64,000 nucleotides of DNA from Candidatus Pacearchaeota archaeon (GTDB taxonomy: Archaea > Nanobdellota > Nanobdellia > UBA10117 > JABICX01): the NCBI GenBank assembly GCA_017608025.1, contig JAFCGM010000002.1, positions 6,250 to 70,249 on the forward strand. Direction: 5' to 3'. The notes under the pieces were generated by a model. That model made no database searches. It had not been told where the DNA came from and saw nothing but the letters and a program-made list of their open reading frames with translations. A program made the translations under genes and the position numbers. Shown piece after piece: positions 16,382-61,604 of the stretch (positions within the stretch are counted from its first letter, which is position 1; every line of letters starts with the position of its first letter).

Positions 16382-16840
16382 TTACTTGTCTTGCTTTTTC
16401 AAAAGATTGTGCTGCCTTATATAAAGATTAAGGTGCTTCTTGCTTCTGAAAAATCCTCCTTTTATTTTCAAATAAAGTTCTCTGTAAGTATCTTTCTCAA
16501 GCTGGTCTTTATTTTTCAGGTTTTTTAAAACTTTTCTTTGACTTCTAACTTTGTTTATCCATTTTTCTTTTGGCGGGGTTCTTGCGCCTCTTTTCCCTTT
16601 CTTGCTTGCAATTCCTCTTTGCCTTCCTTTCTTTTTAGCAAGTGCTGTTGCTCTTGCCCTGTGCCTTGATGTCCCTTTTTTAGGAACTACTGTAATAATC
16701 TGTTCTTTTATTAAAGAGATTATATCACTTTTTGTTATTGCCTGCTTTACTTGCTCTCTTCCTTCTGGAGAAATCTTTACTCGGTTTTTACTTGTGTTTG
16801 CAACTTGAGAAGCAAGTTTCTTTTGGAGTTTTAGTTTCAT
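16382..16840 (-). CDS. rpl19e: Ribosomal protein L19e (eL19)
   Basis: MKLKLQKKLAS...TSRHRAR signature. Confidence 0.9.
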   Translation of the reverse strand: MKLKLQKKLASQVANTSKNRVKISPEGREQVKQAITKSDIISLIKEQIITVVPKKGTSRHRARATALAKKKGRQRGIASKKGKRGARTPPKEKWINKVRSQRKVLKNLKNKDQLEKDTYRELYLKIKGGFFRSKKHLNLYIRQHNLLKKQDK

Positions 16841-17619
16841 TTCTTATTATTCTCCTTTTTGCTATCTTGTGTTTTTGGTTTGTTTTTTGTTTCAGGCTTT
16901 TTTGATTCTGATTCTTTAGTTTGTTTGTTTTCTTTGTTAGGGGCGGTTTCTTTTGCTACAGTCCTTCTGCTGAAGGGACCCACAGCAGTGCTATCTTCGC
17001 CTGGCTCGATATCACTTTTATTTTCTTTGTTAGGGGCGGTTTCTTTTGCTGCTTTTTTTATTTTGGACAAAATCTCCTGCTTTTTCTTTTCATCAATTTT
17101 TTTCTTCTTTTTAATATCTGCAACTTCCTTGTCTTTTTTCTTCAGCTCTTCTTGTCTCTTTTTTTTCTTTTCTGCTTTTTCTTTTTTCTGCTTCTTTCTT
17201 TTTTCATAAGACTCTTTTATTTTCCTTATTTCAGAGTCAAGGTTTCTTATGTTTGAAAATGATATTTTTTTGCTTTTTGCTTTTTCGAGAATTTCAAGGC
17301 GTTTCTTGCTTCCTATTTTTGAAGACAAAATTGCGAAATTTTTCTCTGGATTGAAGTTTTTTAAATCATTGTGATTTTCAACTCTAAAAGGAGTTTTTCC
17401 TTCTTCATTTGCATGCCTTAGAATTGAAATTGTTTTGAATCCAATTGAAACCATCTTTGGTTTTCCTCGTCTTCTAAGCCTTAATTTTGACTGAACTCCG
17501 CGAGGCTTTCTCCACTTTGTTCCAAGCCGTTTTCTCCTGTGAGATTCCTGCCTTTTGAATTCTGGCATTTTCTTTTTTATTTTTTTCTTCTGCTTGGAAA
17601 GTTCTTTTAATGATTTCAT
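16837..17619 (-). CDS. rpl32e: Ribosomal protein L32e (eL32) with ~140-aa K/E-rich C-terminal tail carrying an in-frame repeat-element insertion
   Basis: eL32 core (RRKRLGTKWRKPRG...) followed by a low-complexity tail. Tail contains ...EDSTAVGPFSRRT... flanked by an exact 30-bp duplication. Confidence 0.85.
   Translation of the reverse strand: MKSLKELSKQKKKIKKKMPEFKRQESHRRKRLGTKWRKPRGVQSKLRLRRRGKPKMVSIGFKTISILRHANEEGKTPFRVENHNDLKNFNPEKNFAILSSKIGSKKRLEILEKAKSKKISFSNIRNLDSEIRKIKESYEKRKKQKKEKAEKKKKRQEELKKKDKEVADIKKKKKIDEKKKQEILSKIKKAAKETAPNKENKSDIEPGEDSTAVGPFSRRTVAKETAPNKENKQTKESESKKPETKNKPKTQDSKKENNKK
16958..17020 (-). repeat. Family-A short element (63 bp), in frame inside the eL32 tail
   Basis: gtccttCTGCTGaagggacccaCAGCAGtgctatcttcgcctggctcgatatcac, flanked by exact 30-bp direct repeats (16928-16957 / 17021-17050). 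Confidence 0.85.
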
Positions 17620-18543: not shown

Positions 18544-18546
18544 TTT

Positions 18547-18765
18547 TTACCTCAATTTTTTAAATCCTAATTCCTTTGCAACTTCTCTGAAACATCTTCT
18601 ACAAATGTTCAAATTGTATTTGCTTAAGTGACCTCTTTTTCCTCCGCACATTCTACATTTAGAAAGTGCTTGACCAAATTTTCGATTTTTAGGAGAGTTA
18701 TTTCTAAGAAACCTTTGTTTTTTCGTCTTTCCTGGAATTATTTTGTCTATGCCTATTTTTTTCAT
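18547..18765 (-). CDS. rps14: Ribosomal protein S14 (uS14, Zn-binding type)
   Basis: CRMCGGKRGHLSKYNLNICRRCFRE zinc motif. Confidence 0.8.
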   Translation of the reverse strand: MKKIGIDKIIPGKTKKQRFLRNNSPKNRKFGQALSKCRMCGGKRGHLSKYNLNICRRCFREVAKELGFKKLR

Positions 18766-19274
18766 TTAACTTCAACTCCCAACTCTTTTTTAGCAAAAGA
18801 TATTGAATCTTCTTTTAATATTTTATGCTTTTTAGAAATTTTTGATTTTATTTTTCTCTTTTTTATTCTAAATCCAGGTCTCTCAAGAGTAACGCAAACA
18901 TCTAGTCCTTTCATTCCAATGTCAACATCATACTTGAATCCTGGTATATCTATATATTCTGAAACTCCAAATGCAAAACCATTTTCATCAAAGCAGGACT
19001 CTGGAAGAGTGTTTTCCCTTGCTTGAAGGAGCTTCTTTAATACTTCTTCTGCTTCTTTTCCTCGCAAAGTAAGTTTTGCTCCAATAGGCATTCCTGGTCG
19101 TATATTAAAAGTTGGAACTCTTTTCTTAGCAAGGCATTGAATAGGTTTTTTGCTTGAAAACTTTGAAAGCAATTTTATTGCTTTTTTGCAGTTCTTTTCA
19201 TCATTGCCAGTTCCCATATTTAGAACTACTTTTTCAATTCTTATTTTGCGCATAGGGTTTTCTTTTTCTTCCAT
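18762..19274 (-). CDS. rpl5: Ribosomal protein L5 (uL5)
   Basis: uL5 sequence. Confidence 0.9.
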   Translation of the reverse strand: MEEKENPMRKIRIEKVVLNMGTGNDEKNCKKAIKLLSKFSSKKPIQCLAKKRVPTFNIRPGMPIGAKLTLRGKEAEEVLKKLLQARENTLPESCFDENGFAFGVSEYIDIPGFKYDVDIGMKGLDVCVTLERPGFRIKKRKIKSKISKKHKILKEDSISFAKKELGVEVK

Positions 19275-19275
19275 T

Positions 19276-19992
19276 TTAATTCAACTTTATTGCTGGCTTG
19301 TCTTTTCCAACAACAATAACATTTTTCAAATCAGCTTCAGATAAATTTCCTTTTTCATCTTTTGCTATGGCTATTTTTTGCTTTTTCAATATTCCTTTTT
19401 CAGTGATTTCTTCTAGTTTGGCAGTGCTACCTACTTTTTTTCCACCAAAAAAATACAGCAAGCTTCCTTTTTTAAGAGGAAGGGTTTCTTGCTCTTTTCT
19501 TTTTTCTGAATCATAAACAACTACGTCGCCTGTTTTGTAGTTTCCTTTGCTTACTAAAATGTTCCATCCATTCATGAAATTAAGCTGAATTTTTCCTTTT
19601 TTTATCTTTGACTTGTTTTCAATTCTAAGCAAAAGTATTTTTGCTTCTTTTTCTGGAATTTCTATGAACTTGAATTTTCGATTTTTTCCAATAACAACTC
19701 TGTAGTGCTTATTTATTTTTGGAAAAGAAATTACATCAAAAAGCCCTACTGGGAAATTTATTTCTTTTATTGAACGATTGTTAACAATAACTTCTTTATT
19801 GTAAATCAAATATTTAGCTCGTTTTCTTGAATCTGAAATTTTTAGGATTTCTGTTAAAATAACTGAAAGAGGCATTGAAGTTAATATGTTATGTGTTCCA
19901 GCAATAGGTTTTGCTATCCATTTTATTCCTTTCCTTTTTATTGGCCATGCTTTTGGTGCATTAAGCCTTGATAGATGTTGTTTCTTACTCAT
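19276..19992 (-). CDS. rps4e: Ribosomal protein S4e (eS4)
   Basis: MSKKQHLSRLNAPKAWPI... eS4 N-terminus. Confidence 0.9.
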   Translation of the reverse strand: MSKKQHLSRLNAPKAWPIKRKGIKWIAKPIAGTHNILTSMPLSVILTEILKISDSRKRAKYLIYNKEVIVNNRSIKEINFPVGLFDVISFPKINKHYRVVIGKNRKFKFIEIPEKEAKILLLRIENKSKIKKGKIQLNFMNGWNILVSKGNYKTGDVVVYDSEKRKEQETLPLKKGSLLYFFGGKKVGSTAKLEEITEKGILKKQKIAIAKDEKGNLSEADLKNVIVVGKDKPAIKLN

Positions 19993-20515
19993 TGTTTTTT
20001 CCTCCTTTTGAATCAGTTTTTACTGGCTTTATTGTTTTTGTTGATGATTTTTCAATTGCTTGCTTTCTTGTCCTTCCAGCGAAGGGACCCACGCTGGCGC
20101 TATCTTCGCCTTTGGCTCGATAGCTCTTAGATTGTGATGATTTTTCAATTGCTTGCTTTCTCTTCTTGTCAGATAAATCAATATCAATTATTTGAACATT
20201 TGAAGGAGATATTGGGTATTTAATTACTCGGCCTTCTTCTTTTTTGAATTCTGCTTTTCTGACAAAGATTTTGCTCTTTTTTAGAGACACTTTTTCAACT
20301 TCTCCAATCAATCCTTTGAATTGGCCTCTAAGGATTTTTACCTTGTCTTTAACTCGAATTGGAATGTTTCTTGTATTGTATTTTTTTCGCAAATCTTTTG
20401 AAAGTAAAGCAGACATAAACTTTCTTTTTACATGAAGCGGAGAATTGAATCGATATTTCCTCTGCTTTCTAGGCTGTTTGCTTGACTTCCATTTTTTAGA
20501 CCAAAGAGTTTTCAT
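19985..20515 (-). CDS. rpl24: Ribosomal protein L24 (uL24, KOW) with C-terminal tail carrying an in-frame repeat-element insertion
   Basis: KOW motif KVKILRGQFKG. Tail contains ...EDSASVGPFAGRT... flanked by an exact 27-bp duplication. Start taken at MKTLW. Confidence 0.85.
   Translation of the reverse strand: MKTLWSKKWKSSKQPRKQRKYRFNSPLHVKRKFMSALLSKDLRKKYNTRNIPIRVKDKVKILRGQFKGLIGEVEKVSLKKSKIFVRKAEFKKEEGRVIKYPISPSNVQIIDIDLSDKKRKQAIEKSSQSKSYRAKGEDSASVGPFAGRTRKQAIEKSSTKTIKPVKTDSKGGKNNE
20069..20134 (-). repeat. Family-A short element (66 bp), in frame inside the uL24 tail
   Basis: gtccttCCAGCGaagggacccaCGCTGGcgctatcttcgcctttggctcgatagc, flanked by exact 27-bp direct repeats (20042-20068 / 20135-20161). 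Confidence 0.85.
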
Positions 20516-20520
20516 TTTGA

Positions 20521-20925
20521 TTATAACATTATGCTTGCTGTTTTTGCCACCTGAGACCATCGATATGCAACTTCTTTTGCAATCGGACCTTTAATTAAAG
20601 TACCTTTTGGTGTTCCCAAACGAACATCACGCAAAACAATTCCTGCATTGTCCTCAAATTTAACTTTTGTTCCGTCAGGTCGGGAATATTCCTTTTTTTG
20701 CCGGACAATAACGACAGGAACAACTTGGTGCACCATGTCTGGCTTTCCTGCCTTAACAGCAACAGTAACCAAGTCAGAAACGCCTGCAGAAGCAAGCTTT
20801 CTTGTTCTTGTCTTATAACCGCGAACAGAGATTATCTGTCCAAGTCTTGCTCCTGAATTATCTGCTATGTTAATTACAGTTCCCAAAGGCATGCTTTTTG
20901 ATATTCTTGTTTTTACTGATTTCAT
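20521..20925 (-). CDS. rpl14: Ribosomal protein L14 (uL14)
   Basis: MKSVKTRISKSMPLGTVINIADNSGAR... uL14 sequence. Confidence 0.9.
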   Translation of the reverse strand: MKSVKTRISKSMPLGTVINIADNSGARLGQIISVRGYKTRTRKLASAGVSDLVTVAVKAGKPDMVHQVVPVVIVRQKKEYSRPDGTKVKFEDNAGIVLRDVRLGTPKGTLIKGPIAKEVAYRWSQVAKTASIML

Positions 20926-20936
20926 TTTTTGTCCTC

Positions 20937-21090
20937 TGTCCTTCTGCTGAAGGGACCCACAGCGGTCGTGTAAAGCTTTGCTTCACACAACGGTTTAACT
21001 CTAGTGACTGTCCTTCTGCTGAAGCCACTCATAGCAGTGCTATCTTCAGAAACAAAGTTTCCTTGATAACAGGTATTTAGCATTATAGGA
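20937..21090 (-). repeat. Two tandem family-A elements (A3a 20937-21008, A3b 21009-21090) inserted at the S17 stop / L14 start overlap
   Basis: Flanked by 26-bp direct repeats ttcattttttgtcctctgtccttctg (20921-20946 / 21091-21116) that each contain the ATGA overlap. Confidence 0.8.
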
Positions 21091-21091
21091 T

Positions 21092-21463
21092 TCATTTTTT
21101 GTCCTCTGTCCTTCTGTTTATTGAATCTATTTTTTCATATACAACAAATTTCTTTGTTTTGGAAATTGGCCTGCATTCTGCAATTTTAACTATATCTCCT
21201 TTTTTTGCATTGATATGTTCTGGAAGATGAGCTTTGACTTTTGAGCTTCTTTTTTCATATCTTTCATATTTTGGAATTTTAATGTGCCTTGACCACTTTA
21301 CTGTAACAGTTTTCATCATTTTGTCAGAAACAACTGTTCCTGTAAAGACTCTACCTCTCAGAGGTATGCTTATTTTTGGAGATTTATTATTTTTTTCCAA
21401 TTCATTCACCTTTTGCTTGGTTTTCTCGTGTTTTTTCATTTTTTTATTTTGAGCCGATCCCAT
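21092..21463 (-). CDS. rps17: Ribosomal protein S17 (uS17) with Lys-rich N-terminal extension
   Basis: uS17 OB-fold core. C-terminus ...NRRTEDKK. Confidence 0.85.
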
Positions 21464-21708
21464 GGTCTTTTTTCAATTTCTTCTCCATTTATTTCGACTT
21501 TTTCTTTTGATGGAAGAGTTATTTTAAGAGTTATGTTTTTTTTAAACAGTCTCTTAACTTTGTTTTTTGTTTTTATTTGAAGCGTATGATATGTTTCATT
21601 TACAATCTTGCCTTTTAATCCAAGATTGCACTTGTTTTTTGCCGCTGAAATTTCAGCATTAAGGCCAATTAGTTCGTGCCTTTGAATGTTTTGCTTTGTT
21701 ATTGGCAT
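21436..21708 (-). CDS. rnp1: RNase P protein component 1 (Rpp29/Pop4-like)
   Basis: Small Sm-like basic protein. Sits at the conserved archaeal position between SUI1/L29 and S17. Confidence 0.6.
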
Positions 21709-21709
21709 G

Positions 21710-22015: not shown

Positions 22016-22221
22016 TATTTGTTTTTTACCTCCGTATTTTTTATGAACATTAACCTAGCAATAGTTTTTCGTATCTCACGAATTCTCCCGGCATTTTCCG
22101 GAGTTGCTCCAGCACTTATTTGGGAATTCAGCTTAAGTACTTCTTTTCGCAATTCCTCTATTTTTGAATCAATTTCCTTTGAACTCATTTTTCTTGCATC
22201 TTTTGCTCTGATTATTGCCAT
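22015..22221 (-). CDS. rpl29: Ribosomal protein L29 (uL29)
   Basis: MAIIRAKDARKMSSKEIDSKIEELRKEVLKL. The 14 upstream codons in the ORF track are the repeat element, not protein. Confidence 0.85.
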   Translation of the reverse strand: MAIIRAKDARKMSSKEIDSKIEELRKEVLKLNSQISAGATPENAGRIREIRKTIARLMFIKNTEVKNK

Positions 22222-22303
22222 TGTCCTTCTGCTGAAGGGACCCACAGCAGCTCTACCGAGCAAAGCTCGATAGCGCGAATGGATTCCTTAGTTTTTTTCC
22301 TCC
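22222..22303 (-). repeat. Family-A full-length element (A4) occupying the whole S3-L29 junction
   Basis: Minus-sense: GGAGGaaaaaaaCTAAGGAAtccatTCGCGCTATCgagctttgctcggtagagctgctGTGGGTCCCTTCagcaGAAGGACA then ATG. Its first 16 nt encode the S3 C-terminus and stop. Confidence 0.85.
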
Positions 22304-23124: not shown

Positions 23125-23606
23125 TTCTTAACCTCTTTTTTATTGGTTTTTTCTTCTTTCTTTTTTCCTGTTTTTGACTCAATCACAACTTCAAAATGTG
23201 CTATTTTCCTTTTTCTGCCTCTGTGCCTTCCATAGTGCCAAGAGGTTGGTCCTTTTTGCGCAGAAGCGTGAATTATAATAAGGTCTTTTTCATCAAATCC
23301 TTTTTCAAGTGCATTTGAAACTGCAGCATACACTACTTTTTTTATTTCATGCACTGTTTTGACAGGATATCTTCCTGTTGCTATTTTTCCTCTTCGATGA
23401 GGTATGCTTTTGTAAAACTTTTTGTAAGGCACAGGCATTTTCTTTTCAAGAATCCAGTCCAGCTCTCTTTTAACTCTCTTTATTTCTTTTCCTTTCAAAA
23501 AATTAGCAACTTCAATAGCCTTTTTTCTTGATATTGGCAAGTTAAGGCCTACTGCTCTAGCCATTCTTTCTTTGTTGAATTCCTGAAATACATAATTGTA
23601 TGCCAT
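23121..23606 (-). CDS. rpl22: Ribosomal protein L22 (uL22)
   Basis: uL22 sequence. Confidence 0.9.
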   Translation of the reverse strand: MAYNYVFQEFNKERMARAVGLNLPISRKKAIEVANFLKGKEIKRVKRELDWILEKKMPVPYKKFYKSIPHRRGKIATGRYPVKTVHEIKKVVYAAVSNALEKGFDEKDLIIIHASAQKGPTSWHYGRHRGRKRKIAHFEVVIESKTGKKKEEKTNKKEVKK

Positions 23607-23684
23607 TGTCTTTAAAGCAAAGGACTTGCGCGGGCTCTACCGAGCAAACTCGATAGCGCGAAAGTTCCTTAGTTTTTTGCCTCC
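23607..23684 (-). repeat. Family-A variant element (A5) between S19 and L22, abutting the L22 ATG
   Basis: GGAGGcaaaaaaCTAAGGAACTTTCGCGCTATCgagtttgctcggtagagcccgcgcaagtcctttgctttaaagaca then ATG. Confidence 0.75.
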
Positions 23685-23703
23685 TTTTTAAGATATTTCA
23701 TTT

Positions 23704-24099: not shown

Positions 24100-24180
24100 T
24101 GTCCTTCTAACAAGTTCTTTGTTTGCTAGCCTCCATTATTATTTTTCTATTTATCATTTTTTTACTTGCCGCGTCCTGCT

Positions 24181-24240
24181 CCCTTTTCTTTAGAAAAGAA
24201 AAGGTAAGTTTCCAAAAGAAACTTTTTTGAGCATTGTTAT
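24181..24240. repeat. Family-E palindromic element inserted between L2 and S19 with ~30-bp target duplication
   Basis: cccttttctttagaaaagaaaaggtaagtttccaaaagaaac, flanked by tatcatttttttacttgccgcgtcctg at 24151-24177 and 24243-24269. Confidence 0.75.
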
Positions 24241-24251
24241 CTATCATTTTT

Positions 24252-24965
24252 TTACTTGCCGCGTCCTGATTTTTTAGCTGAAAGCATTCCAACTTTCTGT
24301 CCTGGTGAACGTCCTTTTCTTCTTACAGTTGTTGATGTAGGTCTGTGCCTTCTGTGCGTTCCACCGTGTGGGTGGTCAACTGCGTTCATTGCAACTCCTT
24401 TTACTTTTGAAACAAGCTTGTTTTTTGCTTTTCTTTTGTGGTATGAGTTTCCAGCCTTTATTAAAGGCTTGTTTTTAACTCCAACTCCTGCAACTACTCC
24501 AAGAGATGCATAGCATTCTGGATTTAGTTTTATTTGCCTTTTTGAAGGCATCTTAATTACAATATTTTTCTTTTCTTTTGCAACCAATATTCCAGAAGCT
24601 CCTGCTGCTCTCAAAAGCTTTCCATTTTGTCCTGGAACTTTTTCTATGTTGAAAACTCTTGCTCCGATAGGAATGTCTTTCAAAGCAATTGCATTTCCAA
24701 CTGAAGAGTCTTTTCCTCCATAAAAAACTGTTTGTCCAACTTTGATTCCCATTGGTGCTGGAAGCAAACACATTTGATCATCTTCATATTTTACTATCAT
24801 TAGTGGAGCTGAGTGTCCTACAGAGTTTACAATATCAATAACCTCCCCCTGAAGTATTTCTTTGGACTTAATTGGGTAACGAATTTCTCCAAAATAACGG
24901 TGGCTTGGAGACTTATATCTAGGTGAGCCTTTTCCTCTTCTTTGCGTAATAAGCCTTTTTCCCAT
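24252..24965 (-). CDS. rpl2: Ribosomal protein L2 (uL2)
   Basis: uL2 sequence with a GGTHRRHRP-type C-terminus. Start taken at MGKRLITQRRGKG. The 11 upstream codons in the ORF track are the repeat element. Confidence 0.9.
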   Translation of the reverse strand: MGKRLITQRRGKGSPRYKSPSHRYFGEIRYPIKSKEILQGEVIDIVNSVGHSAPLMIVKYEDDQMCLLPAPMGIKVGQTVFYGGKDSSVGNAIALKDIPIGARVFNIEKVPGQNGKLLRAAGASGILVAKEKKNIVIKMPSKRQIKLNPECYASLGVVAGVGVKNKPLIKAGNSYHKRKAKNKLVSKVKGVAMNAVDHPHGGTHRRHRPTSTTVRRKGRSPGQKVGMLSAKKSGRGK

Positions 24966-25074
24966 GTCCTTCTCGCGAAGGGACCCACTCAGCCGCAAAA
25001 TCGGCTGGCGCTTTCATCAGGCAGATGTTGGTCTGATGCCTGATAGCGCGAAAGTTCCTTAGTTTTTTGCCTCC
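24966..25074 (-). repeat. Family-A long element (A6, 109 bp) between L23 and L2, abutting the L2 ATG
   Basis: GGAGGcaaaaaaCTAAGGAACTTTCGCGCTATCaggcatcagaccaacatctgcctgatgaaagcgccagccgATTTTGcggctgagtGGGTCCCTTCgcgaGAAGGAC then ATG. Confidence 0.85.
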
Positions 25075-25099
25075 ATTATTTTTATCATTATTCTTCTCC

Positions 25100-28889: not shown

Positions 28890-29052
28890 CGAGCCCGGAG
28901 GGATTCGAACCCTCGATCTACAGCTAACTCCAGCACATTAAAGTCTTTTAGCTTATCTTTGCAGGCATCGCATTTTGTTTGCCTGCTCAAAGCGCCAGCC
29001 AATTTTGCGGCTGTAGGAGGCTGTCGCCCTATCCAGACTAGGCTACGGGCCC
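28890..29052 (-). tRNA. tRNA-Arg(CCT) with 88-nt intron at 37/38; the intron carries a family-A repeat module
   Basis: Acceptor GGGCCCG/CGGGCTC. Anticodon stem ACAGC/GCTGT with loop CTCCTA^A. T-arm GAGGG-TTCGAAT-CCCTC. Intron contains CAGCCG-CAAAAT-TGGCTG plus a long stem. Confidence 0.65.
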
Positions 29053-29585
29053 AGTTAAAGAAAACTGCAATATCTTAATAAAACTTGCCAATTCACTACC
29101 GAAATTCTTTAATCTATGTGTTTCTATAAAATTAACATGAAAAACAAACATAGATTAATTGCTTTCTTTTTAGTACTTGTTTTTGTAGTAAGCTTCTTGT
29201 TTTTTGGAAGGATTTTCAGCATAATAGATTCTCTTTCTGATTTAACAGGCGCGGAAATTCTAAAGACTCCAGAAGAAAAGTCAGAAGAATACTCATCTGT
29301 CTGCGAGCAGAAAGACTTTTCAAAAAATTATCGCGACTGTATTTACTGGGAACAGGAAGGGGAAAAACAAGATTCTCTTTCAAAGCTTTCAGACGAAGCA
29401 GTGGAATCTTTTTGCAAAGAGCTATTTAGAATTTACAAAACTTGCGAATAGAAACATTTTTAACTGATATTTTGGGTTTAACTCATATCAGATTTGCTCT
29501 GAGCTAACTTTCGACTGTTGAACAGCAGCGGGATGTCTTTGCCAGCGCTTTTCTGAAAAGAGATATGCATCATGATCTAATGCTC

Positions 29586-29678
29586 CTTCTCGTGAAGGGA
29601 GTTACATGCGGCTGCAAAATCAGCCGGCACTTTCATCAGGCAACAAAGTACGATGCCTGATTGTGATTCACGAACACA
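29586..29678 (-). repeat. Family-A structured repeat element (copy A7), directly 5' of tRNA-Gly
   Basis: tccttctcgtgaaggga...gcggctg-CAAAAT-cagccg...ttcacgaa. Flanked by a duplicated ~20-bp tRNA-Gly 5' segment (29565-29585 / 29680-29700). Confidence 0.7.
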
Positions 29679-29681
29679 TAT

Positions 29682-29753
29682 GCACCGATGATCTAATGGC
29701 TATGATTCGAGCCTTCCAAGCTCGCTGTCTGGGTTCGATTCCCAGTCGGTGCA
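29682..29753 (+). tRNA. tRNA-Gly(TCC)
   Basis: Acceptor GCACCGA/TCGGTGC+A. Anticodon stem-loop CGAGC-CTTCCAA-GCTCG. T-arm CTGGG-TTCGATT-CCCAG. T6 terminator follows. Confidence 0.85.
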
Positions 29754-32370: not shown

Positions 32371-32459
32371 AACTTTTGGAAAAAGTTTCATCAAAAACAG
32401 AATCATATTTTTACATTATCTCTTTTCCATATTGATTTTAGTTAAGATTCTTTAGTGCA

Positions 32460-32540
32460 GTCCTTTTAGCTAAGAGACCCACGCTGGCGACAAACATTGG
32501 TTATGAAAAGTCGCATAAGCTCTTAAATTATTTCTTTTTC
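32460..32540 (-). repeat. Degenerate family-A element flanked by diverged ~30-bp direct repeats
   Basis: gtccttttagctaagagacccacgctggcg... between attgattttagttaagattctttagtgca and atgttaattttaactaagactctttggtgca. Confidence 0.5.
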
Positions 32541-32645
32541 ATGTTAATTTTAACTAAGACTCTTTGGTGCATTTTTTGAATAAATGCTTTTTTGTCATCC
32601 ATTTCAGAAGCTTCATAATAAAACAAAAATAAAAATTAAATTTGT

Positions 32646-41950: not shown

Positions 41951-42937
41951 TTAAAACGCCTGTTTATAGTCAGGAGCGTCTCTTGGCGAAAAATCAATCT
42001 CAATATCAAAAGAAAAAATAGCTTTCACCAAAATACAAATATTATAAACCAAACATTTCAAATACAATTCATTTACTTGAGATTCAAAGTTCTTAAAATA
42101 TAATTTAGCACCAAACTTACGCTTTAATGCACTGAAGCTTGCTTCTACATTAGACCTTTTGTGATAGTGCTTATAGAATTTACTTCTATTCTTACGGAAC
42201 AGTTCCAATGAAGTTTTCCAAACACCGCTTTTTCTCTTCATTCCACAATTACTTCTGAAAGGAATATATGGAACGCCACCATAATGATGAACCGTCTCTA
42301 AATTATGCCTAGAAGAATATGCTTTATCTCCTAATACTTCATCAATCTTGAAATTCTCAGCAGTTCTTGAAACTAACTTATCAAATTCAGGAGAATCATG
42401 ACATTCACCTGTAGTAATTTCAAGAGAAGTAATTACATTCGTAAAAATCCCACACATTGCATGACATTTAACAAATTTATGCCTGTCATTATATCCGACT
42501 CTTGAATCAAACCATCTCTCATAACTATTAGTTGAGAATCCAGTCGAATCAACTGCAAACCTAGTCTCCAAGTATTTCAAAGGCATAGCAGACATCATAA
42601 GTAAATAATTCAATGTTGGGGTCAAAGATTTTCTTCTCATGTAGTCCGTAACAGAAGAATGATGTGGGACTTTTTTAATATATCCCATATCTTTGAGAAA
42701 CCATAATTGAGATGTAAGTGTTCTTGAAGGCATCCCAAAATATAACTTCATAGCTAGGCAGAAGATTACATCCTTTTGATTGTGCATTGGACGACCTTTT
42801 TTCTTTATTGGTTCCGATACAGTTTCATCCAATAGATTTCTGAGGATTTCAACAAAGAGTCTACCTTCCTTAGTTTGCGCTTTATTGTAGGAAGTCCAGT
42901 CTCTATCTTTTGTGAATTCTTTAATTTTTGATTGCAT
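41951..42937 (-). mobile_element. IS5/IS4-superfamily DDE transposase gene (IS ends not resolved)
   Basis: DDE_Tnp_1-like blocks FAVDSTGF, LGDKAYSS, EASFSALKRKFG. Confidence 0.7.
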
Positions 42938-46155: not shown

Positions 46156-46860
46156 TCAAAGCTGGTTAAAGCATCTCTTGAAGTTCTTTTCGATCTGTTC
46201 CTCAACATCTTCTGGGGAGAACTTCTTTATTCTGGCAATCTCCCTAATTACTTTTTTTATGCTTGTTTTTGGGTTGTCTGTTATATACGGGAAATCTGTT
46301 TCTGTTAAGATTCGCGAAAGAGGAACTATTTCAACTAGCTTCTTAACTTCTGGATACTTGAAGATGAAAGTGTTGATTGAAAAGTAGAATTTAGACTTTA
46401 TGTCTTCAATTAATTCTGGGTTTCCTGTGTATGAATGAATTACTGCCTTTCCATTATAATTTTTAAGCATTTTTGCAACTACTCCTTCTGCCTGCCTGCA
46501 GTGTATAATCACTGGCTTGTTTATCTGCTTTGCAAGCTTCAGAATTTCGCTGAAGTATTTTTTGTGCACAGGCCTTTCTGTTTTTGATGAATATTTATAG
46601 TCAAGCCCTACTTCGCCGACTGCGACTATTTTGTTTTTTTTATTTTTTATTTCTTCAAACTCGGCATAAATTTCCTTTTCAAGATATTCGGAAAATCTTG
46701 TTGGATGGAAACCGATTGCTGCAAAAACATTTTCATATTTTTCAGAAAATTTTAGAACTTCTTTATTTGACTCTGGGTCAAGACCGTTTACTATTACAGG
46801 AATGTTCTTGTATTTTTTAAAATCTTTTTCTTTTGCATGTGAATGTGCGTCGTATAGCAT
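46156..46860 (-). CDS. tatD: TatD-family deoxyribonuclease/hydrolase
   Basis: MLYDAHSHA..., HCRQAEG, VIHSYTG and TETDFPYI TatD motifs. The upstream extension in the ORF track is repeat-derived. Confidence 0.8.
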   Translation of the reverse strand: MLYDAHSHAKEKDFKKYKNIPVIVNGLDPESNKEVLKFSEKYENVFAAIGFHPTRFSEYLEKEIYAEFEEIKNKKNKIVAVGEVGLDYKYSSKTERPVHKKYFSEILKLAKQINKPVIIHCRQAEGVVAKMLKNYNGKAVIHSYTGNPELIEDIKSKFYFSINTFIFKYPEVKKLVEIVPLSRILTETDFPYITDNPKTSIKKVIREIARIKKFSPEDVEEQIEKNFKRCFNQL

Positions 46861-46914
46861 TACACAATAACCTCGATTATTACTCTTATTAATGAGTAAT
46901 GTATGTACCAGTCC

Positions 46915-46980
46915 TTCTAGCCAAGGGACACAAGCTGGTCGTGTACAGCAGAGCTGCACACAACTTAAACCTTAATCTCA
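46915..46980 (-). repeat. Family-A short element (66 bp) flanked by 39-bp direct repeats
   Basis: ttctagccaagggacacaagctggtcgtgtacagcagagctgcacacaac... between attattactcttRttaatgagtaatgtatgtaccagtcc copies at 46876 and 46981. Confidence 0.7.
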
Positions 46981-47019
46981 ATTATTACTCTTGTTAATGA
47001 GTAATGTATGTACCAGTCC

Positions 47020-47078
47020 GTTTCGCCCGGACTGTGCGAAAGCGCATTGCTTCGCAATGCACTATACTTTTATTTCAG
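47020..47078. repeat. Family-C structured element (copy 1), nested next to the family-A copy
   Basis: gtccg-tttcgcc-cggac hairpin plus gcgcattgc-ttc-gcaatgcac hairpin. 96 bp between flanking repeat copies. Confidence 0.65.
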
Positions 47079-47832
47079 TTATTACTCTTGTTAATGAATG
47101 ATGTACATACCATTCAAACTCATTTATTACATTATATTTTGATAGGTCTAATTTAAGGGTTTTGGGTCGAATGAAAATTATCTTGTGATTTTTCTTCACG
47201 ATTTTATGTGCTTCTTCTAAAAAAGAGTTGTAAAGAGTTTTTATTTTTTTGCCGGCGAGAGTCGAGCTTTTTCCATATGGAGGATCGCAAACAATTGCTT
47301 CAATTTTATCAGAGAACAATGAAGATATGTTTGTAGCATCTCCAATAATCACCTGCCAATCTTTTCCTTCCCTTATGTTATATTTATCAGAATAAAATCT
47401 AAGATTGGTTTTGGAAGCTTGTGCAGCTTTCCATTTAATATCTATTCCTATTCCTTTAATTCCAAGAATAGCACTTTCCAAAATAATAGAACCTGTTCCG
47501 CAAAAGGGATCTACAATTTGATTCTTAGCTTCAGACAAGTTAATTAAAAGACGGGCAAGCTTTGGTTTTAGTGCTGTTGGATGAAATGCTGGCTTTTTCT
47601 GAGGTTCTCGGTCCAGAAACTGACCAGATTTTCTTTCCCATATGCAATAATCATTTAAGTAAGCTTTTTTTATTCCTGCGCTTTTTACACACAAATCAAT
47701 TATTTTCTTAGAAGGAATTTTTTTGCTGAAAAATACATAATTTTCTTTTAATTTAGAATTAACATTAAAAAGGATATCAACCTCCCGCTTAAATGCGGAC
47801 AGGTTTTCTCCAGAAATTCTCAGCTTAATCAT
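47062..47832 (-). CDS. tRNA (guanine-N2)-methyltransferase, Trm11/Trm-G10-like
   Basis: DPFCGTGS (motif I) and DPPYG (motif IV). Confidence 0.6.
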   Translation of the reverse strand: MIKLRISGENLSAFKREVDILFNVNSKLKENYVFFSKKIPSKKIIDLCVKSAGIKKAYLNDYCIWERKSGQFLDREPQKKPAFHPTALKPKLARLLINLSEAKNQIVDPFCGTGSIILESAILGIKGIGIDIKWKAAQASKTNLRFYSDKYNIREGKDWQVIIGDATNISSLFSDKIEAIVCDPPYGKSSTLAGKKIKTLYNSFLEEAHKIVKKNHKIIFIRPKTLKLDLSKYNVINEFEWYVHHSLTRVITEIKV

Positions 47833-53546: not shown

Positions 53547-53755
53547 ATTATTTTTATTAATTTGGTTGAAGAGCTTAGTCCGCGAATTATTTCAACCTTG
53601 CAGTTTAATTGCTTTTCAAGGAATTTTATCAAATGCTGGTTGGCTTTTCCCTGAATGGGCTTTGCTTTTATAGCAATTCTAATGAAACCCTTTTCTTTTT
53701 CCAAAATTTCGTCTTTTTTTGCATTTGCTTTTACTTTTACTTTAATTATTTCCAT
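53543..53755 (-). CDS. DUF167/YggU-family protein
   Basis: MEIIKVKVKANAKKDEI...IRIAIKAKPIQGKANQHLIKFL pattern. Confidence 0.6.
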   Translation of the reverse strand: MEIIKVKVKANAKKDEILEKEKGFIRIAIKAKPIQGKANQHLIKFLEKQLNCKVEIIRGLSSSTKLIKII

Positions 53756-54278
53756 TTGACCAAATTTCCTCAAAATATGCGTTGTACTTCTCAGCAATTG
53801 TTCTTGATTTTATTAAAATATTTGCCTCATTATTTCTGTTAAGAGAGTAATAACGCCAGTTTGAAGAGCCGAGTATTGTTGTTTCTGAATCAATAATTAT
53901 CAGCTTTGCATGAGTTGTCTGGGCGGTGCCGTCATACTTGACTGAAATATTGTTCTTTCTTAAATATTTAACTGCTTTTTCAATCTCTTCTGGATATTCG
54001 TCAAAGATTACTTTCACATCAATGCCACAGGATTTTGCAGAAGCAAGAGCTTCTAGAATTTGATTTGCTGAAGAGTCTGGATAAGAATTATAGTATGTGG
54101 CAGAGAACATTGCAACATAAATAGACTCATCTGCCTTGTTTATTTCATTTAGAAGTGCAGGAACATAATCTCGGTTATTTATAACTTGTATTTCTGTAGA
54201 GGTTTGGTAGAAAATAAAAAAAACAAGCGGGAGGGAAAGCAATAAAGCAATTAAGATTATGTGTTTGTTTTTCATCAT
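53742..54278 (-). CDS. Secreted PLD-superfamily (HKD) nuclease/phosphodiesterase
   Basis: HAKLIIIDSETTILGSSNW (HxK(x)4D(x)6GSxN) with a signal peptide. The ATGATG start abuts a family-A element. Confidence 0.75.
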   Translation of the reverse strand: MMKNKHIILIALLLSLPLVFFIFYQTSTEIQVINNRDYVPALLNEINKADESIYVAMFSATYYNSYPDSSANQILEALASAKSCGIDVKVIFDEYPEEIEKAVKYLRKNNISVKYDGTAQTTHAKLIIIDSETTILGSSNWRYYSLNRNNEANILIKSRTIAEKYNAYFEEIWSNGNN

Positions 54279-54395
54279 CTGTCCTTCTGCTGAAGCCATC
54301 CACAGAGCCCTTTTGGAAAAAGCGCTCGCGGAAAACGGCAAATGCGGTCGTGTAAAGCTTTGCTTCACACACGGTTTAATTCTGGTTTTAGTCCT
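54279..54395 (-). repeat. Family-A element (copy A9) filling the thrS-PLD intergenic region
   Basis: ctgtccttctgctgaagccatccacag...gcggtcgtgtaaagctttgcttcacacacgg... The gtgtaaagc/gcttcacac hairpin is shared with A3a. Confidence 0.7.
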
Positions 54396-54412: not shown

Positions 54413-56119
54413 TTATTTCTTTTTTTCTACTTCAGTTTGGACTTGCTTAATAAAGTCTTTTGGACTTACTCCGAACTTTGGCTTTGTGCCATGCTTTCGA
54501 ACTGCAAGAGTTTTTGCTTTGAGCTCTTTTTCTCCAACTACAATTATGTAAGGAATTTTCTCAATTTCAGCATCTCTTATTCTTGACTGAACAGTTTCAT
54601 CTCTGAAATCTTCTTTAATTCTGATATTATATTTACGTAGCTCTTTTGCGATTTTTTGTGCATAAGGTATAAGCTTTTCATTCATGTTGATGATTACTGC
54701 CTGAGTTGGAGCAAGCCAAAGCGGAAATGCACCTTCTGTCTGCTCAATCAAAATTCCGAGGAATCTTTCCATGGAACCGAAAACAGTTCTATGTAGCATA
54801 ACAATTCTGTGCTTTTTGTTATCTTTTCCAATATAATTCATGTCAAATCTTTCTGGAAAATTGAAGTCGAGCTGAATTGTTCCAAGCTGCCAATATCTTC
54901 CTAATTTGTCTTTTGCATGGAAGTCGAGTTTTGGGCCATAGAAAGCACCATCTCCTTTATTGACTTTATACTTCATTTTTGTTTTCTTTAGAACTTTTTC
55001 AAGAGTGTATTCTGCTTTTTTCCAAATTGCATCTGAGCCAATGTATTTTTTGGGTTTTGTTGAAAATTCTATTTTCACATTTGTCAATCCAAAGATTTTG
55101 TAGATTTCTTTAATTAGATTAACTAATTTAATTATTTCATCCACTACTTGGTCTTCTCTGCAAAAAATATGCGCGTCGTCTTGAGTTGCAGCGCGAACTC
55201 TGAACAGACCTGAGAGATTTCCTGAGAGCTCGTTTCTGTATATTGTTCCAAATTCTGCAAATCTCAATGGCAAATCGCGATAGCTTCGTGGTTGAGAATT
55301 GTAAATATAAACATGGCCTGGGCAGTTCATTGGCTTTATTCCGTAAACCTGGTCGTCAACTTCAGAAAAGAACATTTCTTCGCGGTATTTCTCATAGTGG
55401 CCTGATTTTTTCCACAATTCGATTTTGTAAATATGGGGAGTGTAAACTAAATCATATCCTTTTTCCAGTAACTTGTTTTTCATGAATTCCTCTATTTTGT
55501 AGCGGACAAATCCTAGTTTTGGGTGAAACAAAGGAAGTCCTGGACCAAGGTCTTCATGGAAACTGAACAAATCAAGCTTTGAATTTATTTTACGATGATC
55601 GTTTTTTGGAAGCTTTTTTTCCACATACGCTTTTACTTGTTTTTTCTGCTTTTTTGCTGACTCATCTGTTTTAAGCAAAGGAAGAGATTCTGCATTTCCA
55701 AACCGAATTTCGCGGCTGAGCTCTGCGAGAGGGTGGCCTTTTACATGAATGTCAAACTCCTTATACCAGCCAAATGGTGCTTTTTTAACTTGCTTGAAGG
55801 ATTTTTTCAGATTTTTTTCAATTGAATTTATTAAATTATCTGCAGTTGTTGGAGAACTGGGAATTGTGGTTAAATGAACATATGGGTATAGCATTATGTT
55901 TTCAGCTTTTACTTGTTTTGACATTTTCTTTATTTCATCTACTGCTTGCTTAGTGATTTTTTCCATATAATCTTCATCGCCTTTTTCAGCAGATGCAAAA
56001 ACAGTTATACATTCCTTCATTTCCTGCTTAGAATTTTTCTTTACGTTTTCAGCGTCTTTAATTGCCTTTCTTCTTGCAATAACTTCTATGCTTTTTGAAT
56101 GTAGCATTAATAATTTCAT
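54413..56119 (-). CDS. thrS: Threonyl-tRNA synthetase
   Basis: Class-II motifs and ThrRS catalytic core with a C-terminal anticodon-binding domain. Start taken at MKLLML. The upstream 14 codons are repeat element A8. Confidence 0.9.
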   Translation of the reverse strand: MKLLMLHSKSIEVIARRKAIKDAENVKKNSKQEMKECITVFASAEKGDEDYMEKITKQAVDEIKKMSKQVKAENIMLYPYVHLTTIPSSPTTADNLINSIEKNLKKSFKQVKKAPFGWYKEFDIHVKGHPLAELSREIRFGNAESLPLLKTDESAKKQKKQVKAYVEKKLPKNDHRKINSKLDLFSFHEDLGPGLPLFHPKLGFVRYKIEEFMKNKLLEKGYDLVYTPHIYKIELWKKSGHYEKYREEMFFSEVDDQVYGIKPMNCPGHVYIYNSQPRSYRDLPLRFAEFGTIYRNELSGNLSGLFRVRAATQDDAHIFCREDQVVDEIIKLVNLIKEIYKIFGLTNVKIEFSTKPKKYIGSDAIWKKAEYTLEKVLKKTKMKYKVNKGDGAFYGPKLDFHAKDKLGRYWQLGTIQLDFNFPERFDMNYIGKDNKKHRIVMLHRTVFGSMERFLGILIEQTEGAFPLWLAPTQAVIINMNEKLIPYAQKIAKELRKYNIRIKEDFRDETVQSRIRDAEIEKIPYIIVVGEKELKAKTLAVRKHGTKPKFGVSPKDFIKQVQTEVEKKK

Positions 56120-56193
56120 TGTCCTTCTAGTGACGGGACCCACGCTGGCTTTACTGAACAAGCTTGATAGCGCGAAAGTTCCTTATGTCCTCC
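56120..56193 (-). repeat. Family-A element (copy A8), forming the thrS 5' leader
   Basis: Minus-sense: GGAGGacataaggaacTTTCGCGCTATCaagcttgttcagtaaagccagcGTGGGTCCCgtcactaGAAGGACA then ATG. A TTTATA box abuts its 5' end at 56194-56200. Confidence 0.75.
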
Positions 56194-56364
56194 TATAAAT
56201 TGTTTAGAAATACGGCTATTTAAATTATTCTCCGTTGCCCTCAATAAAATTAATGGGCGACAAAAGCGCCAGCTGATTTCGCGGCTGTGTGGGGCACTCA
56301 CCGTTAATAGCCATAAAATTCTTTATTGAAGAAGATTTAAAAGGTTTGTTGTAAAAAGCAGATT

Positions 56365-60149: not shown

Positions 60150-61604
60150 TTAACCTTTTACAACAACAAAAGGAATTAATCGAGCTACTTTTTTCGCAAT
60201 TCCTGTTTCATGCATAACTTTTATTACTTCCTCAACATCCTTGTACGCTTGCGGTGCTTCCTCAAGCAGTCCTTTTTTGTCGTGGCTGAGTACAATTATG
60301 TTTTTGGATTTCAACTCTGCTGTTAATGACTGGGAGTTTATTTTTCTTTTTGCTGCGTTGCGAGAGAGAATGCGGCCAGCTCCGTGGCATGCTGAGCCAA
60401 ATGTTTCATCCATTGCTTTTTGAGTTCCCTTAAGAATGTAAGAAGCAGTTCCCATTGTTCCTCCAATTAAAACAGGTTGTCCGATTTCTCTGTATTTTTC
60501 TGGAATTTCAGTTCTGCCCGGTCCAAAAGCGCGAGTTGAGCCTTTTCGATGGACAAGAATTTTTTTGGTTTTTCCATTTATAGTGTGCTCTTCAATTTTG
60601 GCAGTGTTGTGCGCAACTTCATAAAGAGTTTTTATTTTTTCAGGCTTTAAATTGAAAGCTTGTGCAAGAGTTTTGCGTGCAAGATGAGCAATAACCTGCC
60701 GGTTTGCAAATGCGCAATTTATTCCGGCCTTAACTGCAGAGAAATACTTTTTCCCTTCTGGAGAATTTATTGGAGCACAAACCAACTCCTTGTCTGGAAT
60801 TTTGATTTTGTATTTTCTAACTGCTTTTGCAAGGTCTTTTGTGTAATCCATTCCAATTTGATGCCCCAGGGCTCGGGAGCCGCAGTGAAAAGAAATTAGC
60901 ACCTGATTTTCCTTAATTCCATAGGCTTGTGCTGCTTTTTTATCAAAAATTTTATCAACCACTTGCAGTTCAATATAGTGATTTCCAGAACCAAGAGTTC
61001 CTGTTTGGGAAAACTGGCGCTGCTTTGCTCGCTGGGAAACTGCTTTTGGGTCTGCTCCTGAGATTTTGCCGTTTTCCTCAATAAATTCAAGGTCTTGTTT
61101 TATTCCATAACCTTTTTTTATTGCAAATTCAGCACCTTCAACAAGAAGATTATCAATTTCATTTAAAGAAAGCTTAATTTTTCCTCCAACACCCAAGCCT
61201 GCAGGAATATTGTCATAAAGCAGTTTGGCAATTTCCTTTTCTCGGCCATTAAAATCAGATTTTTTAAGAGGTGTTGCCATTGTGCGAACGCCGCAATTTA
61301 TGTCAAAACCAATGCCACCCATTACAATTACGCCTTTTTCCAAGTCAAATGCTGCTACTCCGCCAATTGGAAATCCATAACCCACATGAATATCTGGATT
61401 TGCAATTACTGGCTTTTCAACTCCAGGCAGTTTTGCTATGTTCTTTAATTGCTGAAGAGAGTTCCATTCTGAATTTTCACTATTTAGCAAGCTCTTGATT
61501 TTCCTGCTAGCGTAAATCCTAGCTGGAACTGCCATTTTCTCTTCCTGGAACTCCCAGACATGTTTTCTTATTTGTTTCATCTTTCCACATCTTTGGTTTT
61601 TCAT
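60150..61604 (-). CDS. rtcB: RNA-splicing ligase RtcB (tRNA ligase)
   Basis: GYGFPIGGVAAFD, DINCGVR, HCGSRALGH, HNTAK and GTM motifs. Confidence 0.9.
   Translation of the reverse strand: MKNQRCGKMKQIRKHVWEFQEEKMAVPARIYASRKIKSLLNSENSEWNSLQQLKNIAKLPGVEKPVIANPDIHVGYGFPIGGVAAFDLEKGVIVMGGIGFDINCGVRTMATPLKKSDFNGREKEIAKLLYDNIPAGLGVGGKIKLSLNEIDNLLVEGAEFAIKKGYGIKQDLEFIEENGKISGADPKAVSQRAKQRQFSQTGTLGSGNHYIELQVVDKIFDKKAAQAYGIKENQVLISFHCGSRALGHQIGMDYTKDLAKAVRKYKIKIPDKELVCAPINSPEGKKYFSAVKAGINCAFANRQVIAHLARKTLAQAFNLKPEKIKTLYEVAHNTAKIEEHTINGKTKKILVHRKGSTRAFGPGRTEIPEKYREIGQPVLIGGTMGTASYILKGTQKAMDETFGSACHGAGRILSRNAAKRKINSQSLTAELKSKNIIVLSHDKKGLLEEAPQAYKDVEEVIKVMHETGIAKKVARLIPFVVVKG

Follow-up and report, generated by a model that had tools for sequence, protein, structure and literature searches.

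An in-frame hairpin repeat insertion with a target duplication in the ribosomal protein uL24 gene of an archaeon

Genes for ribosomal proteins rank with the most conserved known, and the genomes of DPANN archaea with the most compact. Extragenic palindromes of the REP/BIME type are associated with a RAYT (IS200/IS605-like) gene and produce no target duplication. To our knowledge, intron gain does not produce target duplications either, and SINE/LINE-type elements are not known in archaea. The Rickettsia palindromic elements are short palindromic repeats, many of which are inserted in frame in protein genes, where they encode a conserved peptide that is tolerated (PMC10969869). Prokaryotic MITEs and terminator-like repeats, such as the Sulfolobus MITEs, Correia and SPRITE, are small and multicopy, have flanking direct repeats and include in-frame fusions (PMC10969869). 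Long and variable direct repeats of 8-514 bp have been described for IS1634 and IS1549, for which no mechanistic model was given, and the IS1634 family was described as diverse in archaea (PMC2266710).

In the uL24 gene analysed here, a hairpin repeat specific to the lineage is inserted in frame and accompanied by a target duplication, a description that we regard as secure. In outcome, the closest analogue of this repeat family, here called E, is the Rickettsia palindromic element, and MITEs are also among its nearest analogues. In E and the Rickettsia elements alike, a palindromic or hairpin repeat lies in frame in a small genome and its peptide is tolerated by the host protein; an in-frame palindromic-repeat insertion adding a conserved peptide was found in uL24 and in a second ribosomal protein gene, eL32. 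However, the Rickettsia elements are bacterial and about 150 bp long, whereas E is archaeal, measures 44-100 bp, has a ragged end and target duplications of 19-55 nt, and lies in most of its copies at gene junctions and not within genes. No sequence relation of E to the Rickettsia families was found in the search of Rfam 15, and the host of E is an archaeon.

All sequence data used in this work were metagenome-assembled contigs. The window, that is, the whole 64-kb stretch of DNA that was analysed, has a GC content of 33% and contains a full archaeal ribosomal-protein operon on the minus strand. The uL24 product had 853 homologues, the named ones being from Woesearchaeota, and the closest among the 120 matches listed were only 72% identical, so that the lineage is sparsely sampled. 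The host is a Woesearchaeota-like DPANN archaeon. The uL24 locus is organised as follows:

19985..20515, minus strand: uL24 (L24/L26e) coding sequence with the insertion (Pfam PF16906 and PF00467), starting at M16 of ORF 19985..20560
20135..20161, minus strand: the target copy nearer the gene start (copy 1), coding for RKQAIEKSS, which corresponds to the conserved SDKKRK-A-EK segment of relatives
20069..20134, minus strand: inserted 66-bp core of the E family, 22 codons (QSKSYRAKGEDSASVGPFAGRT), with nothing alignable in the aligned homologues
20042..20068, minus strand: target copy 2 (the duplicate), identical to copy 1 at 27/27 bases by direct reading

The initial annotation had reported an exact 27-bp repeat and a 66-bp core, 93 bp in total, and direct reading confirmed it: the repeat TGATGATTTTTCAATTGCTTGCTTTCT occurs at 20042-20068 and 20135-20161, with a start-to-start distance of 93 bp. 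Both copies lie inside the minus-strand ORF 19985..20560, and the GC-rich core between them (20069-20134) sits in the Lys-rich C-terminal tail of uL24. The product reads ...RKQAIEKSS-QSKSYRAKGEDSASVGPFAGRT-RKQAIEKSS.... Given a per-base match probability of about 0.28 at 33% GC, an exact repeat of 27 nt has a chance of about 1e-15, and this one cannot have arisen by chance. The true start of uL24, as placed by alignment, is M16 at position 20515, which gives a protein of 176 aa (191 aa for the whole ORF), compared with 126-165 aa in relatives. Nearly all relatives among the 120 matches listed measure 124-165 aa, and their Lys-rich tails vary in length. When uL24 was aligned with ten relatives, the first RKQAIEKSS coincided with the conserved SDKKRK-A-EK segment and the following 31 residues had no counterpart.

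Three syntenic Woesearchaeota operons (L100, L103 and L104) contained no match to the E motif or model, and their uL24 tails carried no insert. Their gene junctions overlap or are separated by a few nt; the exception is in L100, where a spacer of 62 nt lies between uS19 and uL22. In L100, the uS17/uL14 overlap is ATGA and the uS3/uL29 overlap is TAATG; both junctions are split by E in the window. Since the aligned homologues lack the insert and the syntenic operons are free of E, the 93 bp of uL24 represent an insertion and not ancestral sequence. We conclude with high confidence that a single insertion event in the host lineage added a 66-bp E copy and a 27-bp local duplicate.

The uL24 feature had initially been described as the second of two homologous in-frame 93-bp insertions, the other being in eL32. 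This proved correct, as the two share the same architecture and the eL32 core can be aligned with the uL24 core along its entire length. The eL32 gene (ORF 16837..17619) has a 30-bp exact repeat, or 34 bp at 33/34 identity, with a spacing of 93 bp, and both genes read E in the same frame, as GEDS(A/T)(S/A)VGPF(A/S)(G/R)RT. In the 64 kb of the window, 11 canonical and 3 diverged E copies of 44-100 nt were found; as small, non-coding and multicopy sequences, these 14 copies resemble MITEs. With a covariance model of the 32-nt 5' module, 11 E copies, each on the plus strand, reached 31-46 bits, and the rest of the window stayed at 15 bits or less. The E copies outside uL24, and a related intron, are:

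16924..17050, minus strand: E copy in eL32, with repeats 16924-16957 and 17017-17050 (33/34 identical, 93 bp apart) and E core 16958-17016
20921..21116, minus strand: two tandem E copies between uS17 and uL14, with an exact 26-bp flanking repeat, 170 bp apart
22221..22290, minus strand: long-form E separating the uS3 stop codon from the uL29 ATG, no flanking repeat
23606..23690, minus strand: diverged long-form E before uL22
24964..25077, minus strand: long-form E with an extra hairpin (M2) before uL2
29563..29698, plus strand: E copy in the tRNA-Gly leader; the initial ~21 nt of the tRNA are duplicated as its flank, with a spacing of 115 bp
32418..32571, plus strand: E copy downstream of the 5S rRNA gene, flanked by 42-nt repeats that have diverged (81% identity) and are spaced by 112 bp
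46860..47115, minus strand: two E copies after the methyltransferase gene 47062..47832, with gene-end repeats
54278..54395, minus strand: E copy before the PLD-like gene 53742..54368
56119..56201, minus strand: long-form E before the ThrRS gene (54413..56161)
28926..29013, minus strand: 88-nt bulge-helix-bulge intron of tRNA-Arg(CCU), ~50 nt of it homologous to E modules

E has a fixed end, which reads GTCCTTC on the plus strand and ...GAAGGAC on the gene strand, and a ragged one, the inserted length being 44-94 nt. Central hairpins have been swapped between copies and vary from copy to copy, which makes E a mosaic. The uL22 and uL2 copies contain GGAGGCAAAAAACTAA, which resembles the uS3 end; here a donor flank has apparently been carried along.

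Outside the window, a profile of the encoded peptide, run against 1.84 billion representatives, returned one real extra locus (P0123) and one false match, a PKD-like repeat protein. P0123 led to L105, a 157-kb contig from a JGI metagenome that holds two E copies, one in an X-E-X arrangement (target, E, duplicated target) at the Rrp4/Rrp41 junction and one long form before eS28, as well as a 32-nt duplicate of a gene end at a distance of 130 bp. L105 belongs, like the related contig L103, to JGI sample 3300033148, and it may or may not come from the same organism as the window. A protein search with P0123 returned only itself, and no candidates came from 5.8 billion proteins when all four open E frames served as peptide queries. 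The DNA pattern of the E core had 95 single matches in GTDB genomes, from unrelated bacteria that are mostly high in GC and all attributable to chance, 4 single chance matches in JGI metagenomes and 0 in IMG/VR; the contig of the window is itself absent from the scanned GTDB, JGI and IMG/VR collections. Literature searches did not find a description of the element. The E family is a real finding, undescribed in the searched libraries and moderately surprising as an in-frame palindromic repeat in archaeal ribosomal proteins.

Splicing was considered for the uL24 insert. E modules occur inside a tRNA intron: the ~50 nt in question share homology with the M2 and hairpin modules of the uL2 and tRNA-Gly copies, and the 88-nt tRNA-Arg intron that contains them is a genuine archaeal bulge-helix-bulge intron in a host with long tRNA introns, RtcB and archease. 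The 93 nt could accordingly be an intron that is removed from the uL24 mRNA by the archaeal splicing endonuclease and the RtcB ligase, the direct repeat blurring its boundaries. Both RtcB and archease are encoded in the window, and removal of the 5'UTR copies would restore a normal spacing between Shine-Dalgarno and ATG. However, a scan of the mRNA strand of uL24 and eL32 for bulge-helix-bulge motifs (hBHBh' or relaxed) gave 0 matches, and the same scan recovered as controls the 88-nt tRNA-Arg intron and an unannotated 61-nt tRNA-Gln intron, which ARAGORN confirmed after in-silico splicing. Unlike such introns, the uL24 and eL32 inserts are accompanied by target duplications; both also stay in frame and uninterrupted, something not required of an intron, and excision of the uS3/uL29 copy at the conserved ends would delete the uS3 stop codon. 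An intron in uL24 is thus very improbable. As the 93-nt insert is a multiple of three, keeps the frame open and has no splice motif, it is most likely translated into 31 extra residues, with a predicted peptide such as GEDSASVGPFAGR.

Three hairpins can be drawn in the uL24 core:

20076..20097, unstranded: stem A hairpin, CCAGCG (20076-20081), loop AAGGGACCCA, CGCTGG (20092-20097)
20070..20088, plus strand: alternative hairpin B, GTCCTT/AGGGAC with a 7-nt loop, overlapping stem A
20099..20124, unstranded: central hairpin GCTATC...GATAGC with an inner GCC/GGC stem

Because they overlap, hairpins A and B are mutually exclusive. The GTCCTT of hairpin B is the fixed end of the E family; its few compensatory variants are CTCC/GGAG at 29583 and GTCCG/CGGAC at 47016 and 52806, hairpin B being otherwise conserved. 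For stem A, 87.9% of the cells in the alignment of 11 E copies were paired and 14 cells were changed on both sides. None of 500 shuffles reached the observed score, controls in which the partner was moved by 1-3 columns gave 18-55% pairing, and L105 contributed another type of stem A pair. It is therefore well supported that the 6-bp stem around AAGGGACCCA is under structural constraint.

The initial annotation had noticed that the stem is CCAGCG/CGCTGG in uL24 and CTGCTG/CAGCAG in eL32, and 4/6 pairs indeed differ on both sides, the peptide changing from FSRRT in eL32 to FAGRT in uL24. From this it had deduced selection on nucleic-acid structure. The constraint itself is upheld by the 11 copies, but its place is not. 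The 3' arm CGCTGG of uL24 is common to the E copies at 32460 and 56121, and the compensatory differences separate E subfamilies, which means that the constraint acted on the lineage of the element and not within uL24. We hold with high confidence that these differences were inherited from different E subfamilies and that the hairpin matters for the element, not for uL24. The covariation also proposed for a second stem (gctatc/gatagc) is not real: the 5' arm GCTATC is identical in both genes and the 3' arms, GATAGC in uL24 and GATATC in eL32, differ by a single one-sided change that turns a C-G pair into a C.U mismatch.

The strand on which E folds gave conflicting signals. Pairing was better on the plus strand, antisense to uL24, for both stem A (87.9 vs 75.8%) and stem B (90.9 vs 74.2%), whereas the central hairpins and the minimum free energy favoured the mRNA strand in 8/10 E copies. 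A single folded strand was considered and rejected, the wobble-pair evidence being opposite in different helices. A scan of the window with Rfam 15 at gathering thresholds found only the 5S rRNA and five tRNAs and no match to E, and a permissive Rfam scan of 16800-25200 gave only chance-level matches. Readings of the hairpins as K-turn, C/D box, H/ACA or hammerhead fitted poorly on inspection and had no Rfam matches. An origin of E from tRNA-Ser or tRNA-Gly was also discarded, as the local similarities reached only p ~0.02 before correction for 70 comparisons.

Relative to the gene, the 11 E copies that accompany protein genes (nine from the window plus two from L105) share one orientation, and the copies near stable-RNA genes have the opposite relation. 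On the plus sense, the long form terminates in CCTTAG and a run of six or seven T, resembling an archaeal terminator, and the shared orientation may reflect selection against this CCTTAG-T6 end within mRNA. In six copies the end lies 0-3 nt ahead of a start codon, which moves the Shine-Dalgarno sequence 70-100 nt upstream. Such positions, the uniform orientation (11/11), the covariation of stem A, the terminator-like CCTTAG + T end and the similar long forms before uL2 in the window and eS28 in L105 are what one would expect if E were a functional structured RNA kept in place by selection, as a cis-regulatory leader or processing signal of ribosomal-protein operons on the mRNA strand, or as an antisense or terminator-like RNA on the opposite strand. 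Such a role is nevertheless improbable, because E copies also occur in coding tails, in a tRNA leader, downstream of 5S rRNA and after gene ends, and E is missing from the three related operons. The conflicting strand signals, the lack of an Rfam family and the swapping of central hairpins between copies also argue against it.

Eight flanking duplications were significant, seven around E copies (21-55 nt) and one around an unrelated module:

24148..24268, minus strand: unrelated terminator-like hairpin module E2 between uL2 and uS19, with a 31-bp repeat (30/31), 90 bp apart

No target duplication was detected at five E copies that abut start codons. The 26-bp repeat at uS17/uL14 carries the uS17 stop codon, the uL14 ATG (ATGA overlap) and the Shine-Dalgarno sequence, and a 10-nt match to the end of E lies within the duplicated target at this site. 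The last ~48 nt of the methyltransferase gene, stop codon included, are present in three copies with spacings of 105 and 97 bp, and the 31-bp target repeat of E2 contains the uL2 stop codon. The same layout, with an insert between two copies of a target X, was seen elsewhere at the SecY end (three copies), at the Rpp21 end (three copies) and at the 3' ends of tRNA-Arg and tRNA-Leu. As a general trait of this genome, flanking target duplications within the window measured 19-70 nt. A stop codon, an overlapping start codon or the end of a tRNA is usually part of what is duplicated, so that both neighbouring genes remain intact.

Repeats can mislead assemblers, and as the window is an assembled contig its X-E-X arrangements might be produced by metagenome assembly. 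This is hardly credible given more than 12 independent sites with different target sequences, the retention of reading frames and gene signals, and the same layout in L105. Moreover, at the older events the target copies have diverged and are 81-87% identical.

Over 12 events in the window, the distance between target copies was 103 ± 13 nt, with a CV of 12%, compared with 45% for the length of the duplication and 33% for that of the insert. Insert and duplication lengths were anticorrelated in these events (r = -0.80, permutation p = 0.0004). As a length of the element, a fixed unit of 93 nt is not borne out: inserts range from 44 to 94 nt, and the nearly constant quantity is the sum of insert and target duplication. 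Among the exact local repeat pairs of the window, 9/20 were spaced 79-121 nt apart (p = 5e-6 against a uniform spread). With the same count, which took direct repeats of at least 14 nt, L100 and L104 had none against the 20 of the window, and L103 had three with spacings of 27-54 nt.

A non-autonomous, MITE-like DNA transposon, mobilised by a transposase elsewhere in the genome that makes long and variable staggered cuts, would account for small, multicopy elements flanked by target duplications, and recent activity is suggested by the exactness of the duplications at uL24, uS17 and E2. Like E, MITEs and terminator-like repeats are small, multicopy, non-coding and often intergenic, with flanking direct repeats. 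For long and variable direct repeats there is the precedent of IS1634/IS1549 (PMC2266710), which share with E target duplications of unexplained mechanism. These, however, are autonomous, measure 1.5-2 kb and possess a transposase and inverted-repeat ends, neither of which is linked to E. In the window, E lacks terminal inverted repeats, varies in length and is not accompanied by an insertion sequence whose ends match it: the ends of the uL24 copy (TGTCCTTCC... and ...CTCTTAGATTG) and of the eL32 copy (ACAGTCCTTC... and ...CACTTTTA) are not reverse complements, and E2 has no terminal inverted repeats either. Where a MITE would show a short target duplication of fixed length, those found here measure 19-70 nt, ten times longer than usual, and vary, trading off against insert length.

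A single transposase, of the IS5 family, is encoded in the window (41951..42937). Its presence could speak for a transposon, but the candidate ends of this element (41841-41860 and 43192-43211) are unlike those of E, and it was rejected as the mobiliser. The ragged end, the inserts of 44-94 nt and the occurrence of the same flanking duplications around unrelated modules (E2 and the tRNA trailers) also argue against a transposon, and one of fixed length would not yield a near-constant sum of anticorrelated lengths. We thus consider transposition rather unlikely. E also differs from REP/BIME in lying within genes and having long duplications, and the 40 ORFs that were scanned included no Y1 or HUH transposase. 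Off-target integration of a CRISPR-like or Cas1 kind, casposons and duplication of an integrase att site were set aside on the grounds of variable duplication lengths, related inserts and no fixed ruler.

The best joint explanation, to which we assign a probability of about 0.45, is that E was inserted with its local duplicate by means of a templated patch of fixed length and not by a classical transposase. One part of a new strand of about 100 nt would be templated on local sequence, which would yield the duplicate X, and the other part on a hairpin module from another place, with the same end of E reached every time; the patch would then be joined beside the original X. Such a process would account for one end being fixed and the other ragged, for the nearly constant sum of insert and duplication, and for the same layout around unrelated modules. 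As the duplication preserves stop codons, overlapping starts, Shine-Dalgarno sequences and tRNA ends, events could survive in a genome with almost no intergenic DNA. The model is drawn from 12 events in one window, and we know of no direct precedent that could be cited. The five E copies next to start codons that showed no target duplication, and the 10-nt match to the end of E within the uS17 target, speak against it. The data fit a fixed-length templated patch better than a transposase acting on defined ends, although this preference is not secure, and that E spread by copy-and-paste patches rather than by a classical transposase on two defined ends is proposed with moderate to low confidence.

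E recalls SINE/LINE elements in its fixed 3' and ragged 5' ends on the gene strand, its variable target duplications and its apparent donor flank, but no A-rich tail was seen and no reverse transcriptase is encoded in the window; a constant sum of insert and duplication is not a property of retroposons. GC skew was discarded as an indicator of replication direction, as gene orientation dominates the signal.

The templated patch might even belong to an undescribed type of DNA addition in this archaeal lineage, in which a strand of fixed length (~100 nt), templated on local sequence and on a hairpin or terminator-like module, is incorporated in tandem; this broader claim is doubtful. The strand would have the size of archaeal Okazaki fragments, or might instead be a short cDNA. 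If it were true, seamless insertions would duplicate gene ends, and hairpin modules would reach operon junctions, tRNA flanks and in-frame tails of ribosomal proteins. Repeats would then spread, and protein tails grow, in DPANN archaea by a sequence-independent process driven by a polymerase or templated by RNA. A near-constant period of 100 nt with duplicated gene ends would point to an insertion mechanism outside the current transposon classes.

Whatever its route, a selfish or templated repeat has entered ribosomal protein genes repeatedly without loss of function. If confirmed, E would stand beside the Rickettsia palindromic elements as their archaeal counterpart and would offer a route by which the Lys-rich tails of ribosomal proteins grow. 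Inserts of this type also yield spurious ORFs and N-terminal extensions in the annotation of MAGs.

Events in which an insert lies between two copies of a duplicated target sequence X (X-insert-X) have an almost constant period in the window, the distance between the target copies being 103 ± 13 nt (n = 12 events). Duplication length and insert length each span a wide range and are negatively correlated with each other (r = -0.80, p = 0.0004, n = 12 events).

The insert at the uL2/uS19 junction, designated E2, is unrelated to E, the dispersed GC-rich hairpin-forming repeat family.

Window 24148-24268: E2 insertion, terminator-like hairpin module TTTCTTTTGGAAACTTACCTTTTCTTTTCTAAAGAAAAGGGAG

It is flanked by a 31-bp duplicate containing the stop codon of uL2; the two copies are 30/31 identical and lie 90 bp apart. 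About eight more E2-like copies were found elsewhere in the window, mostly directly downstream of genes and tRNAs.

The 3' ends of genes and tRNAs in the window also recur 79-121 nt downstream, the copies being separated by hairpin modules, as listed below.

Window 12518-12797: duplicated SecY gene end
Window 52317-52496: duplicated Rpp21 gene end
Window 28767-28908: duplicated tRNA-Arg 3' end
Window 4813-4980: duplicated tRNA-Leu 3' end

The ends of the SecY and Rpp21 genes are each present in three copies, the former including a 70-nt exact repeat at 99 bp spacing and the latter having a period of 79. For the tRNAs, 21 nt of the tRNA-Arg 3' end recur 121 bp away, and 53 nt comprising the tRNA-Leu 3' end and trailer recur 115 bp away.

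Modules of E type are also present inside a tRNA gene. The tRNA-Arg(CCU) gene (28890-29052, minus strand) carries a canonical 88-nt bulge-helix-bulge intron at 29013-28926, and these modules lie within it. A 61-nt intron (1122-1062) is carried by the tRNA-Gln(UUG) gene at about 1028-1160 (minus strand). Unspliced, this gene was detected by neither Rfam nor ARAGORN; in-silico splicing recovers the tRNA.

The E copies located upstream of uL22 and uL2 have 36 nt in common (23652-23687 and 25042-25077, 97% identity). This stretch includes GGAGGCAAAAAACTAAGG, which is similar to the C-terminal end of uS3 with its stop codon (KKEEKN*), and looks like a donor flank that was transported with E. It gives rise to the mini-ORFs MKYLKKEAKN* and MIKIMEAKN*. 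Spurious ORFs and N-terminal extensions in the window arise from E copies, for example those listed below.

Window 22015-22263: spurious extension from E, MLGRAAVGPFSRRT fused to uL29
Window 24252-24998: spurious TTG-start extension of uL2, from E
Window 20922-21095: spurious 57-aa ORF in the uS17/uL14 interval, from E

Gene callers have deposited such E-derived ORFs as proteins, namely P0121 and P0123.

A related pattern is found in a different Woesearchaeote, on contig L103, whose syntenic operon has no match to E.

L103 7380-7492, 8370-8500 and 13395-13500: three regions that show this pattern

A cassette of about 105 nt is common to the 3' ends of uL22 and eL32 (about 95% identity, estimated by eye). 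Within it lie the hairpin GAAACTTTTAGAAAAAGTTTC (peptide KKLLEKVSS) and an ATGA overlap of stop and start codons. The uS3 tail has two copies of the hairpin-containing part of the cassette, forming a 41-nt repeat with a spacing of 54 nt. In the window, this hairpin is found between genes, at 5050 and 32369. The tails of ribosomal proteins seem to act generally as a sink for hairpin modules of this kind.

Two E copies are present in L105, a 157-kb contig from a JGI metagenome.

L105 5815-5955, 9990-10130 and 13948-14110: three sites with relevant features

A long-form E precedes eS28, immediately 3' of the L7Ae gene, and another copy lies at the Rrp4/Rrp41 junction, accompanied by a diverged duplicate of that junction. 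Furthermore, 32 nt of the end of a beta-CASP gene are duplicated exactly, 130 bp away.

Other repeats and mobile elements were also observed. An ABC-type ATPase gene (window 36787-39009, minus strand) is split by an intein, which bears a homing endonuclease domain of the LAGLIDADG type; the RtcB gene contains an intein in L103 and none in the window (60150..61604). An IS5-family transposase gene (41951..42937) lies within 41841-43211. Its candidate inverted repeats, each 20 nt long and located at 41841 and 43192, bear no relation to the ends of E. A further GC-rich repeated hairpin module, GCGGCTAGGACT...TAAGGCGGCTACGCCTTCTGCGG, occurs at 32324-32380, 28671-28722 and 828-870, 3' of the 5S rRNA gene and close to two tRNA genes. 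Finally, the region 28560-28661 holds three tandem copies of the 34-nt unit TTTCTTAGAAAGAAAGCTTGCAAAGAACAACATT.
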